A stretch of DNA of 64,000 nt, from NCBI GenBank assembly GCA_028285525.1, contig JANQOZ010000044.1:6920-70919 (forward strand), in the 5' to 3' direction. Below the pieces are notes generated by a model, which ran no database searches, had not been told where the DNA came from, and saw nothing but the letters and a program-made list of their open reading frames with translations. The DNA is from Lysobacterales bacterium. Lineage in GTDB: Bacteria > Pseudomonadota > Gammaproteobacteria > Xanthomonadales > SZUA-38. A program made the translations under genes and the position numbers. Numbering within the stretch: position 1 is the stretch's first letter; each line of letters starts with the position of its first letter. Shown piece after piece: positions 40,241 to 51,289 of the stretch.

Positions 40241-41089
40241 TCAGTCGGTGTTCAGTCGCATCGAGAGGTCGATCGCCCGGATGTTCTTGGTGAGGGCGCC
40301 CACCGAAACGAAGTCGACCCCGGTAGCCGCTATCTGTGCCAGCCGGTCAAACTCAATGCCGCCAGAGGCTTCCAGTTCCACTTTCCCAGCGGCCTGCTTG
40401 ACCGCTTCAGCGGTTTGCGCGAGGTTGAAGTTGTCCAGCAGGACGCGTTGGGCGCCGGCGCTGATCGCTTCGCTGAGCTGCTCCAGGTCCTCCACCTCAA
40501 CTTCGATGAGCTGGCTCTGGCCCAGCGACCGGGCGCGCGCAACGGCGGACGTGATGGATCCCGCCGCCGCAATATGGTTCTCCTTGATCAGGAACGCGTC
40601 GTACAGCCCCATCCGGTGGTTGACGCCGCCGCCGCAGGCCACAGCATATTTCTGCGCCAGCCGCAGGCCCGGCAGGGTCTTGCGGGTATCCAGCACGCGC
40701 GTTGGCCCACTGGACAACGCCTCGACGTAGCGGCGGGTGACCGTCGCCACCGCGGACAGCAGCTGCAGAAAGTTCAGCGCCGCCCGCTCGGCGCTGAGAA
40801 TCGATCGCGCGGCGCCTCGTACGCTGAACAGCTCGCTGCCGGCGGCAACCTTGTCCCCGTCCGCATAGTTCCAGCTCACCTTCAACGCCGCATCGATTTG
40901 GCGGAAGCAGGCGTTTGCCCAGTGTTTGCCGCACAGCACGCAATCCTCGCGAGTGATCACCCGACCGGTCGCCTGCGTGTTGCGGTCGATGAGCTGGGCC
41001 GTGATATCACCGGCATCCCCAAGGTCCTCCTTGAGGGCGCGCTTGACGTCAGCCAGTACTTCGAGCTCGGGGGGCGGCATATGACTCAT
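40241..41089 (-). CDS. nadC: nicotinate-nucleotide diphosphorylase (quinolinate phosphoribosyltransferase)
   Basis: 282 aa. Contains LDTRKTLPGLR, HRMGLYDAFLIKENH and VLLDNF. Confidence 0.92.
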   Translation of the reverse strand: MSHMPPPELEVLADVKRALKEDLGDAGDITAQLIDRNTQATGRVITREDCVLCGKHWANACFRQIDAALKVSWNYADGDKVAAGSELFSVRGAARSILSAERAALNFLQLLSAVATVTRRYVEALSSGPTRVLDTRKTLPGLRLAQKYAVACGGGVNHRMGLYDAFLIKENHIAAAGSITSAVARARSLGQSQLIEVEVEDLEQLSEAISAGAQRVLLDNFNLAQTAEAVKQAAGKVELEASGGIEFDRLAQIAATGVDFVSVGALTKNIRAIDLSMRLNTD

Positions 41090-43350
41090 GATTCGGTCTC
41101 CACTCGGGTTTCCTCGAGGCGCTGGGCGATGGCGTCGAGCGCCCGGTCGAACAGCGGAACGGTTTCCAGCGCGATCGCCTCACCGCTGGCCAGCTCCTGC
41201 GCCAGCTCGGCGACAGGCTTATCCGCCAGCTTGATACCCTTCTGGTCGACAAACAGATAGTTGCCGGTGATCGGGCTTTTCCACGACAGTTTGGCCCGCT
41301 GCTCGCCGCCGTCTTCCGTAATGAACTGGAACCAGGTGCCGGGTTCCAGCGACTCGACCTGGCTGCGCAGGGCCGCCTCAAGCTGCTCCAGCGGAACGGG
41401 TTCGGGCTCGCTGTCGAGATCGTCGAACACGCCATCGGACAGCTCCGCGGCGCCGGAAATCGGCAGCTGAACCGGCGCCACCGCGGCCGGCAGCGACATG
41501 GTAGAGGGCGTGGGCTCGTCCGCCGCCAGCTTGACCTTTTCGCGGAACTGCTTGTCCAGCATCGACTGGTACAGCTTCTTGAGACTCTTGAAGACGTCCT
41601 TCACGTCGTCTTCGTGATAGGCCACCATCTCGAGACCGGCTCGCAGCTGCGCTGACAGGCCCGGCAACAGCTTCTGCAGCTTGGACACTTCAGCGGCGTC
41701 ATCTTTCGGCGCCACGCTCCAAACCATCTGTTCGACGAAGCCCACCGCATCGGAAAACTGGGACGAGTCCTCACCGTGCCTCAGGCAGGTCAGCACCAAC
41801 ACGTTGGCCCAGGGTTTGTTCAGGATTTCCTCCACGATGCGCGGCAGCTCCTGGTCGGCCAGGCGCTCCTCGATCACTTTTGCGGCCGTGCGCCGGGCCT
41901 GCTGCAGGCGCTGCTTGCCCTCGGTGGCCTCCGTGGTCCGTTTCTCGGCGACCTGCGCCCGCTTTTGGAGTTTAGCGACGTAGCTGTTCAGCTCCTGGCG
42001 CAGCTCGTCAAACAGATCCAGGTCGTCATCGAAATCGTTGATGACCCGGTCGACAACGCCGGCCATAAAATCGTGCAGCCGATTGCCGCGGTCGGTTTCG
42101 GCGGCCCACCCCAGCGCCAGGTCGGCCAGCGTATCGAGTAGGCGACGCGCCGGATGGCCACGGCTGGCAAACAGCTGCCGGTCGATTAGCGCCACTTTGA
42201 TATAGGGAATCTGCAGGCGCGACAGCATGACCTGCATGGGCTGCGGGAGGTTTTCGTCGCTCAGGATGAAGTCGAACAGCATCGCCACCAGGTCGATGGT
42301 GTCCTCGTCGTCGCTGCTGGCCTGCGTACCGGTCCCATCGAGCCGGTCCATTTCGCTGAGCAGCATCGACTTCACGTCCGCCGAAGTGCTGACTTCCGGC
42401 GGCGCGGTGCTCTGCAGCACCGACAGCGCGTTGAGCAGCTGCTGCGTCTGAGCGATCGCGTTGGCGGAACCGGCGGTGGAGCCTGCCAGCTCGGGTGCCG
42501 GGTGGCGCTGTCGTCGCGCGGACAGCAGGCTGAGGATGGACTGCATGATCCGCTCGTCTTCCGCGTCCTCGCCCGTGATGTGGGTGTCGACGTAAGGTGC
42601 CTCTTCCAGTGCAGCCGGATCCTGATGGTCGGGCAGTGGCCCCTCGGCGGCGGCGGGCGTCGGACCGACTCCAGCCGGCGGGGGCGTACCTCGGCCCGTC
42701 GGCGGCAGCGAATGCTGAAGCTGCGGCATGACGCCGTCCTGGATAAAGCGCTCGTTGATCTGCTGATACAGTCCGTCGAGCTGCTCCAGCACCTGTCGAT
42801 CAAACAGCTTGTAAATGACCAGCAGGACGGGCAGCTCAACCTCAAACAGCGGGCCGGACTGGCGGAGCGCGCTGCAGATCGAAGCCGGCCCCAGCGGATT
42901 GCTTTCGTCATCGGGCGGCGTCCGGTTGAGCGCCTCGCCCAGGCGTTGAGCAAGCGCAAAGAGCGGCCGGGACAGGCGGTTTTCGCCCTTGGCAACCATT
43001 TCCGAGATGGCGAGGGATTCTTCCAACTCGGCTTCTTCGACCAAACTTAAAGACTCTTCGGAGACTTCCGGCGCGGGGGCTGACGCGCTGCCACCGTCTT
43101 TCTGGTACGTGATCAGGCTCGCGCGAAGGGACTTCAGAATCTCGTTTTCCACCGAGCTCCGGGTCTTGCGAACTTGCCGCATCCCGTCAAAGTAGTGGGT
43201 TTGCAGCGCGTTGCTGTCGGCTTTTTCCGCCATCTCAAAGAGCGCGTTGTCGACCGACTCGAACATGCCCTGCAGCAGCGAAACCATGCCGCGGAGAAAA
43301 ATCCGGGCGCATTGATGGTAGGGCGTGTCCTGGCGGGAACTCCGATTCAT
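41086..43350 (-). CDS. DUF1631-family protein
   Basis: 754 aa. The N-terminal MFESVDNALFEMAEKADSNALQTHYFDGMRQVRKTR matches the DUF1631 pattern. It overlaps the nadC start by 4 nt. Confidence 0.75.
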   Translation of the reverse strand: MNRSSRQDTPYHQCARIFLRGMVSLLQGMFESVDNALFEMAEKADSNALQTHYFDGMRQVRKTRSSVENEILKSLRASLITYQKDGGSASAPAPEVSEESLSLVEEAELEESLAISEMVAKGENRLSRPLFALAQRLGEALNRTPPDDESNPLGPASICSALRQSGPLFEVELPVLLVIYKLFDRQVLEQLDGLYQQINERFIQDGVMPQLQHSLPPTGRGTPPPAGVGPTPAAAEGPLPDHQDPAALEEAPYVDTHITGEDAEDERIMQSILSLLSARRQRHPAPELAGSTAGSANAIAQTQQLLNALSVLQSTAPPEVSTSADVKSMLLSEMDRLDGTGTQASSDDEDTIDLVAMLFDFILSDENLPQPMQVMLSRLQIPYIKVALIDRQLFASRGHPARRLLDTLADLALGWAAETDRGNRLHDFMAGVVDRVINDFDDDLDLFDELRQELNSYVAKLQKRAQVAEKRTTEATEGKQRLQQARRTAAKVIEERLADQELPRIVEEILNKPWANVLVLTCLRHGEDSSQFSDAVGFVEQMVWSVAPKDDAAEVSKLQKLLPGLSAQLRAGLEMVAYHEDDVKDVFKSLKKLYQSMLDKQFREKVKLAADEPTPSTMSLPAAVAPVQLPISGAAELSDGVFDDLDSEPEPVPLEQLEAALRSQVESLEPGTWFQFITEDGGEQRAKLSWKSPITGNYLFVDQKGIKLADKPVAELAQELASGEAIALETVPLFDRALDAIAQRLEETRVETES

Positions 43351-47597: not shown

Positions 47598-47832
47598 GAG
47601 CGTTCCTGTTGCAAGCTAAACGACTATTTTGCGGCACGATGCCGGGCTGTGTCCACGGTCGAAAACCCCTGGTGGCAAGGCTTCCGGGAGGCTGACAGCG
47701 TGACGTTGCAGCCGTCAGAGGGCGTTGTTCTGGCACATTGTTTTACGGTCAGTTAACGAAGCATGTGCTTTAATTACCAATTCAACGACGGCTAATCAGC
47801 CGCCTTTGATACCGAATGAGGGAGGAAACTGC

Positions 47833-48165
47833 ATGGAAGTGAGCGCGAGGCTCCAGCAGCTGCTGGACCGCTATCCGGTCTGTGTGTTTATGCGGGGCAG
47901 TCCGGAAGACCCTAACTGCCGAGAATCCCGCGAGGCGATCGAGGTACTCGCCGACGCTGGCGTGAGCTTTCACAGCGTCGATATCCAGCGGGACCCCGAG
48001 CTGCGAGCGCTGCTGCAGAAGTCGCCTGACTACTCTGAGCTGCCGCAGGTTTTTCTTAACGGCCAGTGCCTGGGCGGGGCCACGCTGCTGCGCGAACTCC
48101 ACGTGCAGGGTGAGCTGGTTCCCATGGTTGAACAGCTGGACATTCAGTATCAGCTGACCGGCTGA
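47833..48165 (+). CDS. monothiol-glutaredoxin (Grx4)-like protein with CRES instead of CGFS
   Basis: An ATG at 47833, preceded by GAGGGAGGA, gives 110 aa. VCVFMRGSPEDPNCRESREAIEVL aligns by eye to Grx4 ILLYMKGSPKLPSCGFSAQAVQAL. Confidence 0.7.
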   Translation: MEVSARLQQLLDRYPVCVFMRGSPEDPNCRESREAIEVLADAGVSFHSVDIQRDPELRALLQKSPDYSELPQVFLNGQCLGGATLLRELHVQGELVPMVEQLDIQYQLTG

Positions 48166-48183: not shown

Positions 48184-48894
48184 TCAATCGGCGGGTTCCG
48201 CCGCCGCTGCATCCGACCAGGGAATGCCCATTTCGCTGTGCCATCGGTTAACGATGGCACAGAACAATGCGGCGGTCTTTTCCACGTCATAAATTGCGGA
48301 GTGGGCCTCGTTCGCGTCCCAGTCGATGCCGGCGGCCCGTGCAGCCCGTGCCAGCACGGTTTGCCCAAACGCTAGGCCACCCAGCGTAGCGGTATCAAAG
48401 CTGCTGAACGGGTGAAACGGCGAGCGCTTGTAGCCTGTGCGACTGATCGCGGCGTTCAGGAACCCAAGGTCAAAAGAAGGGTTGTGCCCGACCAGGATTG
48501 CGCGACCGCATCCCGCTGTTTTCATGGCCTCACGAATCGGCTGACAAAAGGTCTGAAGCGCCACCTTCTCGTCGACGGCCTGCCTCAGCGGGTGGTCCGG
48601 AATAATGCCCGTGATTTCCATGGATTTGGGATCCAGCACGGACCCGGGAAACGGCTCGACGTGTACGGCAACCGTTGGGCCCGGTTTGACGACGCCGTCA
48701 TCCGTCATTTCGATCGGGCAGCCGGCCATTTCGAGCAGCGCATGCTTCTGACTGTCGAAGCCCCCCGTTTCGAGGTCCACCACAACCGGAAGAAACCCGC
48801 GAAAGCGCCGGGCAATAGGTGATTTTTGCTGACTCAACGAATCTGTCCTGGTTTCCGCGGGCTTGCAGGGAGTGCCAGAGCCGAAGGTTAGCAC
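48184..48894 (-). CDS. rnt: ribonuclease T
   Basis: Contains [18 protein letters not shown] (exo I), [11 protein letters not shown] (exo II) and [12 protein letters not shown] (exo III). An alternative TTG start lies at 48837. Confidence 0.88.
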
Positions 48895-48933: not shown

Positions 48934-49695
48934 TCAGGTTGACGCTGCGGTGCCGAGAATCACTTCGCGCTTAGCGAGATCGGCCAGAATTCCGGTGCCG
49001 GCTTGAACAATCGTTTCCGCGTTTTCCGCACCCAGCTCGCCGGCGATTTGCTCCAGGTAGCGTCGGCCGGTTTGTCCCGGTTCCTGCTGCAGCAGCTGCA
49101 GCAGACGGGCGGTCACAGCGTTCAGCTTAAGAAAGCGAACCTTGTCGTCGTGCCGTCGGTAAATCACCAGATGGGTGGGTTCCTCCGGCGGCGCGTCGGG
49201 CTGAAACTCGGGCTTGATCAGATGCACCGGGTATTCGTAGCTGAGCAGCCACGCCAGCGGCGACAGGACGGGTACGCCGCTGATCAGGTCGCCATCGGGA
49301 TCGGCGGCGACGTCCGACTGCTCCGCCTCGTCCAGGGACAGCGCTAGTTCCGCCCATTCGTAGTGCGCGAGCTCCAGGATGAACGGGGGGTCGCCCTGGT
49401 CCGGTCCTCGGTGGTCCTGCACAAACTGCAGAAACTCCCGCGGCAGCTCCGGGAACAGCGGCGTGTGGGCCCGATGCCTGACAAAAAAGTCCCGCACCAG
49501 CTTGTTCCAGCGCTCTTTGGTGTAGAGCTTCCGCAGCACCGGAAAGTTGTTGGCGATGAATCCCTGGATGTTGTTGAAGAACAGTTCTCGATAGATCGCC
49601 ATCCGGCGATCCTCGATGTCGCCGGGTGCCGGCGTCTGGCTGGGATTACGGATATGGCCGGCGAACTGCCGCTGCAGCTCGCTGAGCCGGGACAT
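48934..49695 (-). CDS. DUF2063-domain protein (partner subunit of DUF692/MNIO enzymes; BufC/MbnC-like role)
   Basis: 253 aa. [18 protein letters not shown]...RRMAIYRELFFNNIQGFIANNFPVLRKL fits the DUF2063 pattern. The ATG shares 1 nt with the DUF692 stop (TGATG at 49693-49697). Confidence 0.8.
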   Translation of the reverse strand: MSRLSELQRQFAGHIRNPSQTPAPGDIEDRRMAIYRELFFNNIQGFIANNFPVLRKLYTKERWNKLVRDFFVRHRAHTPLFPELPREFLQFVQDHRGPDQGDPPFILELAHYEWAELALSLDEAEQSDVAADPDGDLISGVPVLSPLAWLLSYEYPVHLIKPEFQPDAPPEEPTHLVIYRRHDDKVRFLKLNAVTARLLQLLQQEPGQTGRRYLEQIAGELGAENAETIVQAGTGILADLAKREVILGTAAST

Positions 49696-50573
49696 CAGGC
49701 GCTCGCCTGGACCGCGGGTTCGCCGCGCTCGTTTCGCTTGGGCGCCTGCCGCTGGATGCTGCGAATGGTTTCCACCTCGTCGAGCAGTTCGGCGATGGGC
49801 GGGAAGTTGAAGTCGCGCTCCACCAGCGCCGGGAGCGGGCCCCAGAGCTCACGGGCCTGCCGATACAGATCCCACACCGGCGCAATGATTTCAGCGCCAT
49901 GGGTGTCGACGATCAGATCTTCCGCCTCGTTGTAGTGTCCGGCGACATGGCAATACGTGACGCGTTCGCCGGGCAGGGCAGCCAGAAACTCACCGGCGTC
50001 ATACCGATGATTCACGCTGTTGACGTAGATGTTGTTCAGATCCAGAAGGAGATCGCAGTCAGCGCGATCGATCACTTCGTTGATGAACGTGATTTCGTCC
50101 ATCTCCTTACCGGGCGCCGCGTAGTACGACACGTTTTCGATCGCGATGCGGCGATCGAGAATGTCCTGGGTGCGACGAATGCGGGCGGCAACGTATTCCA
50201 CCGCCTCTTCGGTGAAGGGAATCGGCATCAGGTCGTACAGATGACCGTCGTCGCTGCAGTAGCTCAGGTGATCGCTATAAGAGCGGATCTGGTGCTGATC
50301 CAGAAACGCCTTGAGGCGCTTGAGAAAAGTCTCATCAAGCGGGGAGGGGCCGCCGATCGACAGAGACAGACCGTGGCAGACGAACGGATACTTTTCCGTG
50401 TAGCTGCGAAAGGTGCGTCCGAGCCGGCCGCCGACGTTGATCCAGTTTTCCGGCGCCACTTCCCAGAAGTCGACTGCCGGATCAGCTTGGGTTTCGCTGG
50501 CGTGGGAACGCAGCGGGCCCAGGAGGGCCCGCCGCAGCCCAAGTCCAGCTCCTGCAACCGGATGGTTACTCAT
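49695..50573 (-). CDS. DUF692 / UPF0276 family multinuclear non-heme iron oxidative enzyme (MNIO; MbnB/BufB-like)
   Basis: 292 aa. Contains [60 protein letters not shown] and [10 protein letters not shown], a string of DUF692 signature segments. Confidence 0.87.
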
Positions 50574-50597
50574 GGAGTTGGCAGGGTGTTACCGGGT

Positions 50598-51056
50598 TCA
50601 GGCAGCGCCGCCGCACTTGCCTTCGCCACACTTGCCTTCTTCGCCCTTGTCGCCGCCGCAAGAGCCTTCTTCACCCTTGTCGCCGCCACATGAGCCTTCT
50701 TCGCCCTTATCGCCGCCGCAAGAGCCTTCCTCGCCCTTGTCACCGCCGCAGGAGCCTTCTTCACCTTTGTCGCCGCCGCACTTGCCTTCACCGCAGGCGC
50801 CTTCTTCACCTTTGTCGCCGCCGCACTTACCTTCGCCGCAGGCGCCCTCTTCACCCTTGTCGCCGCCGCACTTGCCTTCGCCACAAGAACCCTCAGCGGT
50901 GTCTTTCTCGCCGGCCAGCTCGTAGCCTGCGTTCAGATCGGTCAGCTCGAACGGGTTATCAGCCGCAGCCGCCGTACCCAGGGCAAAGGTGGAAACAAAC
51001 GCTGCGCCAACAGCGGCGGTCAGGGGCTTGATAACGATCGATGATTGCTTGGACAT
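50598..51056 (-). CDS. secreted Cys-rich EGxCG/GDKGE-repeat protein, putative RiPP precursor of the adjacent MNIO enzyme
   Basis: 152 aa with RBS GAGGA upstream of the ATG. It has the Sec signal MSKQSSIVIKPLTAAVGAAFVSTFALGTAAAA and the linker DNPFELTDLNAGYELAGEKDTA. The final 98 aa are tiled from 12 EGxCG (x = S, K or A) and 7 GDKGE units, then GAA. The gene ends 24 nt upstream of the DUF692 gene. Confidence 0.78.
   Translation of the reverse strand: MSKQSSIVIKPLTAAVGAAFVSTFALGTAAAADNPFELTDLNAGYELAGEKDTAEGSCGEGKCGGDKGEEGACGEGKCGGDKGEEGACGEGKCGGDKGEEGSCGGDKGEEGSCGGDKGEEGSCGGDKGEEGSCGGDKGEEGKCGEGKCGGAA
50601..50894 (-). repeat. tandem coding repeats (30-nt SCGGDKGEEG units and 45-nt ACGEGKCGGDKGEEG units)
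   Basis: Read directly from the sequence. The copies differ almost only at synonymous third positions in the EGxCG frame. Confidence 0.9.
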
Positions 51057-51259
51057 GCTTGTAAATCCTCAGTTTTTAATCGTGGCCTTCAGGGCCGTCA
51101 TTCACCGGGCGTTCGCGGCCAAATCCGCTGGCGCCCCTCTCGATGAAACTCGGTTTTCAATCAGTGCCCGGTTACTTCGCAAGTGTGGCGGGTTGGGCAC
51201 AGCTCCCGGTCACGCTCTAAGAGACCCGGGCCTCGAGAAAACGCTTTCATCATTTTTTC

Positions 51260-51289
51260 ATGCAAATCGTTTTTTGTCGATTTTTGCAT
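51260..51289. promoter_or_regulatory. imperfect inverted repeat ATGCAAATCG-N8-CGATTTTTGCAT in an AT-rich patch
   Basis: Arms at 51260-51269 and 51278-51289, about 200 nt upstream of the precursor ATG (minus strand) and about 280 nt upstream of fimT (plus strand). Confidence 0.2.

Follow-up and report, generated by a model that had tools for sequence, protein, structure and literature searches.

What is made from a small Sec-targeted protein whose C-terminal part is an array of EGxCG units, when its gene is followed immediately by genes for a DUF692-type oxidase and a DUF2063 partner? The question is raised by three genes on the minus strand of a 64,000-nt stretch of DNA from an uncultured gammaproteobacterium of the Lysobacterales. 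The whole stretch is referred to here as the window, and all coordinates are positions within it. A preliminary description of the window had proposed an operon for a ribosomally made, post-translationally modified peptide (RiPP) metallophore with an unusual mixed-repeat substrate. The analysis presented here assigns the locus, with a probability of roughly 85%, to the fonABC/hvfABC-type operons for captophorins (a class also called Buf_EGKCG/oxazolin), and among these to the Lys-Cys group. It is a further member of an experimentally characterized family, closest to fontiphorin, and no new kind of system.

Gene Order and Family Membership

The first gene of the operon, the HvfA/FonA-family precursor gene (50598..51056, minus strand, stop codon included), encodes a 152 aa protein with 12 Cys. 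It is followed by an hvfB/fonB-type gene (49695..50573, minus strand) for a 292 aa multinuclear non-heme iron oxidase (MNIO), and then by an hvfC/fonC-type gene (48934..49695, minus strand) for a 253 aa partner protein of the PME1 type, which consists of a DUF2063 N-terminal domain and an NGO1945-type C-terminal domain. The precursor stop codon and the hvfB ATG are 24 nt apart, the hvfB stop and the hvfC start overlap by 1 nt (TGATG at 49695), and a GAGGA ribosome-binding site lies at 51070-51066, 9 nt ahead of the precursor ATG. The preliminary description is correct in each of these details of packing, spacing, overlap and ribosome-binding site, all of which match the coordinates of the open reading frames (ORFs).

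Family membership had been left by that description to searches of Pfam and of the NCBI curated models (NCBIfam), which were carried out with all three proteins. Each protein passes the cut-off of a curated model. The 292 aa oxidase scores 431.8 bits on the equivalog model NF003818 (HvfB family MNIO-type RiPP peptide maturase; cut-off 360) and matches Pfam PF05114 at E=1.2e-103. The 253 aa partner scores 332.6 bits on NF050145 (HvfC family RiPP maturation protein; cut-off 142) and is matched by both PF09836 and PF22106. The precursor scores 39.9 bits on the HvfA-family domain model NF050137 (cut-off 19.5) and has no match in Pfam, DUF2282 included. The oxidase fails the BufB model NF050167 (268.5 bits vs a cut-off of 310) and the MbnB model TIGR04159 (45.1 bits vs a cut-off of 325). 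The locus does not have the features of a methanobactin operon: the MbnB model is failed, the partner is of the DUF2063 type, and the precursor carries a signal peptide. Among solved structures, that of the Histophilus somni MNIO (PDB 3BWW, E=3e-71) comes nearest to the oxidase and that of Neisseria gonorrhoeae NgoC (PDB 3DEE, E=2e-11) to the partner.

A scan of one genome per species yielded 80 related loci, with protein identities of no more than 83%. They come mostly from uncultured Gammaproteobacteria (Lysobacterales, Wenzhouxiangellaceae, Elongatibacter, Thiohalobacter and similar), plus Nitrosomonas. The hvfC gene directly follows hvfB in all 80, and an EGxCG precursor gene lies adjacent upstream in 64. 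Curated hidden Markov models (HMMs), the metal ligands described below and synteny in the 80 loci thus bear out the proposal of an MNIO with a DUF2063 partner and a Sec-signal EGxCG precursor of the oxazolin/bufferin superfamily.

Active Site of the Oxidase

The preliminary description had made its reading depend on the presence of the MNIO metal ligands in the 292 aa protein, and all nine are conserved together with the catalytic Asp. The predicted iron ligands H67, H102, E146, D178, N181, H209, D223, H225 and E252 are invariant in an alignment of the oxidase with FonB, HvfB and NgoB; HvfB N175, D242 and H244 are the counterparts of N181, D223 and H225. Also invariant are D254, which corresponds to the catalytic base D249 of FonB, and R14, R15 and F255, which correspond to the Lys-Cys substrate-contact residues R15, R16 and F250 of FonB. 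In the FonB model, the equivalent of F255 contacts Lys3 and Gly5 of the substrate. The ligand and catalytic columns also match 3BWW and MbnB. The roles of the MNIO ligands, the catalytic Asp and the substrate-contact residues are known from published mutagenesis, and the active cofactor is a mixed-valent diiron center for whose formation HvfC is needed.

Overall, the oxidase is 67% identical to FonB, 48% to NgoB and 46% to Haemophilus influenzae HvfB; for the partner, identity amounts to 50% with FonC and 30% with H. influenzae HvfC. These values were measured against Fon, Hvf and Ngo sequences that were machine-read from the supplement of PMC13097082 and may contain small errors.

The Precursor and Its Repeat Core

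The repeat core spans residues 55-152 of the precursor (50601..50894, minus strand) and parses exactly as first described: 12 EGxCG units (5 EGSCG, 5 EGKCG and 2 EGACG) with 7 GDKGE spacers, ending in a 3-residue GAA tail. Its 98 residues contain 12 Cys, which are the predicted modification sites. Four of the EGSCG units stand singly spaced. The repetition does not arise by chance: Tandem Repeats Finder reports a 45-nt unit present 3.1 times with 92% matches (50744-50882) and a 30-nt unit present 4.9 times with 87% matches (50634-50780), corresponding to periods of 15 and 10 residues; a published survey of the family describes 17-residue repeats.

The reading frame of the precursor is under protein-level selection. 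Among the four 10 aa units, all 20 pairwise differences are synonymous third-position changes; the three 15 aa units differ in 12 synonymous and 2 non-synonymous (S/A) codon pairs; and the window differs from a close relative, locus L081, by 25 synonymous and 2 non-synonymous codons. Because the differences between units and from L081 are nearly all synonymous, the frame is taken as real. Other ORFs that run over the repeat, for example 50413..50925 (plus strand) and 50570..50884 (minus strand), were rejected as repeat by-products, since the variation is synonymous in the EGxCG frame.

The precursor has 2,721 relatives in a large protein collection. Two sets were used to place its core within the family: the best 120 of these relatives and, separately, 64 precursors sampled through the similarity of their enzymes. 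The number of Cys per precursor has a median of 7 and a maximum of 13 in the enzyme-sampled set, with a maximum of 11 among the 120 best relatives. The 12-Cys array is therefore at the long end of the sampled range; arrays of the family reach 58 Cys in the published survey. S-type units occur in 88 of the best 120 relatives, A-type units in 18 and the exact GDKGE spacer in 53. The enzyme-sampled set contains 43 precursors with K units only and 11 with K and S units, and none with A. Since 11 of 64 mix K and S and none has A, the S/K mix can be regarded as a minority subtype that recurs, with A units being rarer. The substrate is not unusual in the way the preliminary description had it: S and A units and GDKGE spacers recur in relatives, and the characterized precursor NgoA already mixes S and K units.

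The net charge of the core is -14, compared to +3 for FonA, +4 for HvfA and +9 for NgoA. Cores of -5 or less were found in 12 of 62 members of the enzyme-sampled set, the minimum of which is also -14. Core charge varies continuously across the family, with the window precursor at one end, and there is no discrete acidic class.

In close relatives, short-read assemblies break or shorten at the array. In the closest relative, L001, which has the same repeat plan, the contig begins inside the array (1-296), and the visible part alone has 12 Cys. A short-read Logan contig with the same HvfB sequence as the window, L082, begins 62 bp before hvfB. L081 (2926-3234) carries a clean 150-nt (50 aa) in-frame gap that leaves a 6-Cys allele (P0001/L081), which could be a real repeat-number polymorphism or a short-read assembly collapse. 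In another variation, the precursors of L011, L012, L021, L026, L061 and L068 have EF-hand-like D-x-D-G-x-V/I segments between their EGKCG units, matching the published second type in which Buf_EGKCG is fused to EF-hand_5.

Signal Peptide and Probable Docking Segment

A Sec-type signal peptide, as proposed earlier, occupies residues 1-32 (MSKQSSIVIK / PLTAAVGAAFVSTFALGTAAAA; 50961..51056, minus strand). It was called by simple rules (charge, hydrophobicity and the -3/-1 rule), which recognize a +2 n-region, a 22-residue hydrophobic region and, in the c-region, AxA-type sites ending in AAA before DNPF; cleavage is likely between AAA and DNPF. The segment aligns with the N-terminus of FonA. A Sec signal peptide in place of a classical leader is a mark of the family, and by the same simple rules the precursor carries one and is predicted to be exported.

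The signal peptide is followed by a segment of 22 residues (residues 33-54, DNPFELTDLNAGYELAGEKDTA; 50895..50960, minus strand) with the motif NPF...L..GY. Of the 120 best precursor relatives, 109 contain NPF and all contain [LMV]..G[YF]; L41, G44 and Y45 are invariant in alignment A5. By analogy with the published work on HvfA and FonA, the segment is a probable docking site for the recognition domain of HvfC. In a low-confidence AlphaFold2 model of the precursor, a helix is seen at residues 12-27, and the motif falls on the only short helix outside the signal peptide.

Comparison with Characterized Systems

The closest characterized system is fonABC, the cluster from which Fontimonas thermophila makes fontiphorin (Gadgil et al., ACS Chem Biol 2026, PMC13097082). 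It has the same A-B-C layout without DoxX, its MNIO and partner show the highest identities given above, and the two oxidases agree in their catalytic and substrate-contact residues. FonA resembles the window precursor in having a signal peptide, an L..GY segment and repeats of the EGKCG type. FonA, however, has 7 Cys, all of them in Lys-Cys doublets or triplets and separated by basic spacers (EKKADAKAK), whereas the window precursor has S, A or K before its 12 Cys, singly spaced units and acidic spacers.

The gonophorin cluster ngoXABC of N. gonorrhoeae (PMC13097082), to which the solved NgoC structure belongs, also pairs an MNIO with a PME1 partner. Its precursor NgoA combines one QGSCG and two EGSCG units, spaced by ASKSA, with EGKCGEGKCG doublets. 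It differs from the window locus by its basic or neutral spacers (ASKSA), a total of 7 Cys, the lack of EGACG, the more distant MNIO and the presence of DoxX (NgoX). All 7 Cys of NgoA are converted to 5-thiooxazole, including those of the three singly spaced G-S-C-G units (PMC13097082).

The oxazolin cluster hvfXABC of nontypeable H. influenzae (Manley et al., PNAS 2024, PMC11252979; bioRxiv 2026.07.17.739211) gave its name to the NCBIfam HvfA, HvfB and HvfC models. Here too a Sec-signal precursor is modified, and the MNIO and HvfC install Cu-binding heterocycles on the Cys of EGKCG. The MNIO and the partner are more distant from those of the window than FonB and FonC are, HvfA carries its 6 modified Cys in three AEGKCGEGKCG repeats, the cluster includes DoxX (HvfX), and the host is a pathogen in which the HvfA product is a virulence factor.

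The bufferins, in which BufA1 (DUF2282) or BufA2 is encoded with BufBC (Leprevost et al., PNAS 2024, PMC11626156), share the MNIO sequence cluster, the PME1 partner type, Sec-signal precursors and a Cu-chelating 5-thiooxazole product. In place of EGxCG repeats, their precursors have folded domains of the DUF2282 or 6/12-Cys type.

FonA, HvfA and NgoA are all fully converted to 5-thiooxazoles (PMC13097082), and Cu binding has been demonstrated for fontiphorin, gonophorin and oxazolin.

Proposed Pathway

By analogy with FonABC, HvfABC and NgoABC, the following pathway may be envisaged. The 152 aa precursor would be synthesized in the cytoplasm and held by the HvfC-like partner, probably through the NPF...L..GY segment that follows the signal peptide. 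The partner would also allow the HvfB-like MNIO to attain its active state, which is mixed-valent Fe(II)/Fe(III). Using O2, the MNIO would carry out a four-electron oxidation of each EGxCG Cys to 5-thiooxazole; every converted Cys would be 4 Da lighter, and the product would absorb at about 305 nm. All 12 Cys are probably converted, those of the S- and A-type units included. The modified protein would then be exported by Sec and its signal peptide removed, and in the periplasm or outside the cell the N/S donors of the thiooxazoles would bind Cu(I) and act as a buffer against copper or oxidative stress.

Several observations weigh against this reading of the locus or against parts of it. The precursor fails the narrow H. 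influenzae HvfA equivalog NF050188 (28 bits vs a cut-off of 95) and is thus a member of the HvfA family, not an ortholog of HvfA. The AlphaFold2 model of the precursor, built on a 31-sequence alignment, has a mean predicted local distance difference test score of 44, and the core is predicted to be disordered; a beta-helix has been reported for other family members, and the low-confidence model speaks neither for nor against it. The acidic core stands against the basic cores of FonA, HvfA and NgoA, and metal preference or stoichiometry could differ accordingly. No copper-homeostasis gene or metal-responsive regulator was found near the operon; with DoxX absent as well, the copper role is argued from homology alone. 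Finally, modification in vitro failed with a minimal FonA peptide of one repeat but succeeded with a two-repeat peptide, and Ser is not among the reported FonBC variants at position 3, the position before Cys. The single-repeat result casts some doubt on the four singly spaced EGSCG units, though NgoA argues otherwise.

The charge of the core and the lack of copper genes or a metal-responsive regulator next to the operon also speak for a reading in which the same chemistry serves another role, such that an acidic, Gly-rich poly-thiooxazole protein would handle a metal other than copper or act as a redox or thiol buffer. The published authors themselves call the metal specificity and the physiological role of EGKCG products open, and the MerC fusions that occur in the wider family are a hint of other metals. 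Such a role is nevertheless unlikely: every characterized 5-thiooxazole peptide binds copper, the clusters are switched on by copper, gold or oxidative stress, soft N/S donors favor Cu(I), and core charge is continuous across the family.

The peptide results bear on the extent of modification. If only the Lys-Cys units or the tandem EGxCG-EGKCG doublets were converted, the four singly spaced EGSCG units, and perhaps EGACG too, would stay as free thiols or disulfides and the product would be a hybrid thiol/thiooxazole protein. The conservation of F255, counterpart of the FonB residue that contacts Lys3 and Gly5, is in line with this, as are the unmodified single-repeat peptide and the missing Ser variant. 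Partial conversion is quite unlikely, however, given that the singly spaced G-S-C-G units are modified along with the rest of NgoA and that FonBC accepts Ala, Thr and Arg before Cys. Furthermore, the single S-type units of the window precursor vary only synonymously and S-type units are abundant across its relatives, which would be hard to explain if they were not functional sites.

A methanobactin-like product with oxazolone/thioamide pairs, a chemistry named in the preliminary description, originally assigned to HvfA (PMC11252979) and still carried in the names of NCBIfam models, is very improbable: it is incompatible with alkylation-assisted heteronuclear multiple bond correlation on fontiphorin, oxazolin and gonophorin (PMC13097082), the oxazolin groups have been reassigned to 5-thiooxazole by two groups, the original authors among them, and the window enzyme falls far below the MbnB cut-off. 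Full conversion to 5-thiooxazoles in a captophorin that binds copper thus stands as the preferred reading.

DoxX and Other Genes in Related Loci

The absence of a DoxX gene was one of the points that had been thought to set the locus apart. No DoxX gene was found in the 64-kb window, either by tblastn, for which the ORFs lying downstream in related loci (about 40 of them DoxX) served as queries, or by a six-frame HMM search run without filters. The absence itself thus holds, but it is not distinctive, since DoxX is missing from the fon cluster too, and from 18 of the 53 related loci that have 1.5 kb or more of flanking sequence on each side. Where present in related loci, DoxX usually lies directly after hvfC. 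According to a published survey, the precursor, the MNIO, DUF2063 and DoxX occur in these clusters "in various combinations". DoxX is frequent in the HvfABC/FonABC family and does not define it.

In 7 of the 53 downstream ORFs scanned, a HATPase_c (histidine-kinase ATPase) gene replaces DoxX after hvfC. These are probably the ORFs of about 240 aa in the Nitrosomonas-type loci L022, L034, L039, L048, L049, L053 and L062, locus membership being judged from ORF size; the gene might indicate a local regulator. Typical gammaproteobacterial-type hvf operons (HvfB identity 68-69%) were also found in metagenome-assembled genomes labelled "uncultured Halobacteria archaeon" and "Rhodothermales bacterium" (L011 and L031); either mis-binning of the contigs or horizontal transfer may account for this.

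Genomic Setting

As had been stated, RNase T (rnt) is encoded downstream of hvfC, and a type IV minor-pilin operon lies upstream in divergent orientation. The surrounding genes are housekeeping genes: a glutaredoxin-like protein, argD, purK, an RND pump and the pilins. There is no second precursor and no MNIO paralog in the 64-kb window, and an Rfam scan of the whole window at gathering thresholds gave no match.

The block upstream of the precursor gene (51057..51214, minus strand), a presumed promoter and 5' untranslated region that includes the GAGGA, is conserved with L081. Homology to L081 runs for about 158 nt upstream of the precursor ATG and then stops, the upstream gene in L081 being nth. 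The operon promoter should lie inside this shared block of about 158 nt. The only consensus promoter hit, a sigma-70-like site at 51280..51252, was rejected as the operon promoter; it does not exceed the number expected from shuffling and falls outside the block shared with L081. The block 51057-51214 also contains an inverted pair, GTGCCC...GGGCAC, whose halves are about 25 nt apart on either side of a TTGCGA hexamer. This pair could act as an operator or form a hairpin in the 5' untranslated region.

A promoter and terminator scan found no intrinsic terminator between hvfC and rnt. The listed RNase T ORF (48184-48894) begins with a GTG at 48894 and encodes 236 aa, of which the family model aligns from residue 28 only. 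In L082, rnt is called at 217 aa, equivalent to a TTG start at 48837 with AGGA ahead of it; this start would leave a gap of about 96 nt after hvfC, without a terminator-like hairpin. A conserved hvfABC-rnt synteny was considered and rejected, as rnt is shared only with the closest relative, L001. The glutaredoxin-like ORF (47725-48165, plus strand) is convergent to rnt and scores 71 bits on the Grx4 model (cut-off 117); it is called at 110 aa in L082, and the listed TTG start probably over-extends it. Further away, a 754 aa ORF (41086-43350, minus strand) scores 303 bits on the NCBIfam "PacR family protein" model, far under the cut-off of 1200.

Significance

Acidic precursors are present in the uncultured gammaproteobacterium of the window and in Lysobacterales-like relatives. 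A precursor with a charge of about -14, S or A before Cys, singly spaced units and a 10-residue period could behave unlike the basic Lys-Cys members, a proposal that we regard as doubtful. If it were true, the acidic subtype might differ in metal stoichiometry or selectivity, with carboxylates assisting the thiooxazole ligation; it might stay soluble where fontiphorin, which aggregates on Cu loading, does not; and its enzyme would have to process isolated non-Lys units efficiently. No characterized acidic member or member with A units was found in the searchable literature. As they stand, the acidic charge, the A units and the repeat period are quantitative variation within a known family.

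The practical gain is correct naming, because relatives carry generic labels and the exact precursor is not on record. Close relatives of the enzyme pair are publicly labelled only "DUF692 domain-containing" and "putative DNA-binding domain-containing". The exact 152 aa precursor product is not in the gene-call collection that holds HvfB and HvfC from the same source, and in the public record the precursor may have been missed or given a different start. The three products can be named as HvfB- and HvfC-family proteins and a thiooxazole metallophore precursor, with little to be gained beyond annotation. The locus is also a clean long-array (12 Cys) example of the acidic, S/A-containing subtype, and as such a possible test substrate with which to ask how the MNIO handles isolated non-Lys units and how spacer charge affects metal loading or aggregation.

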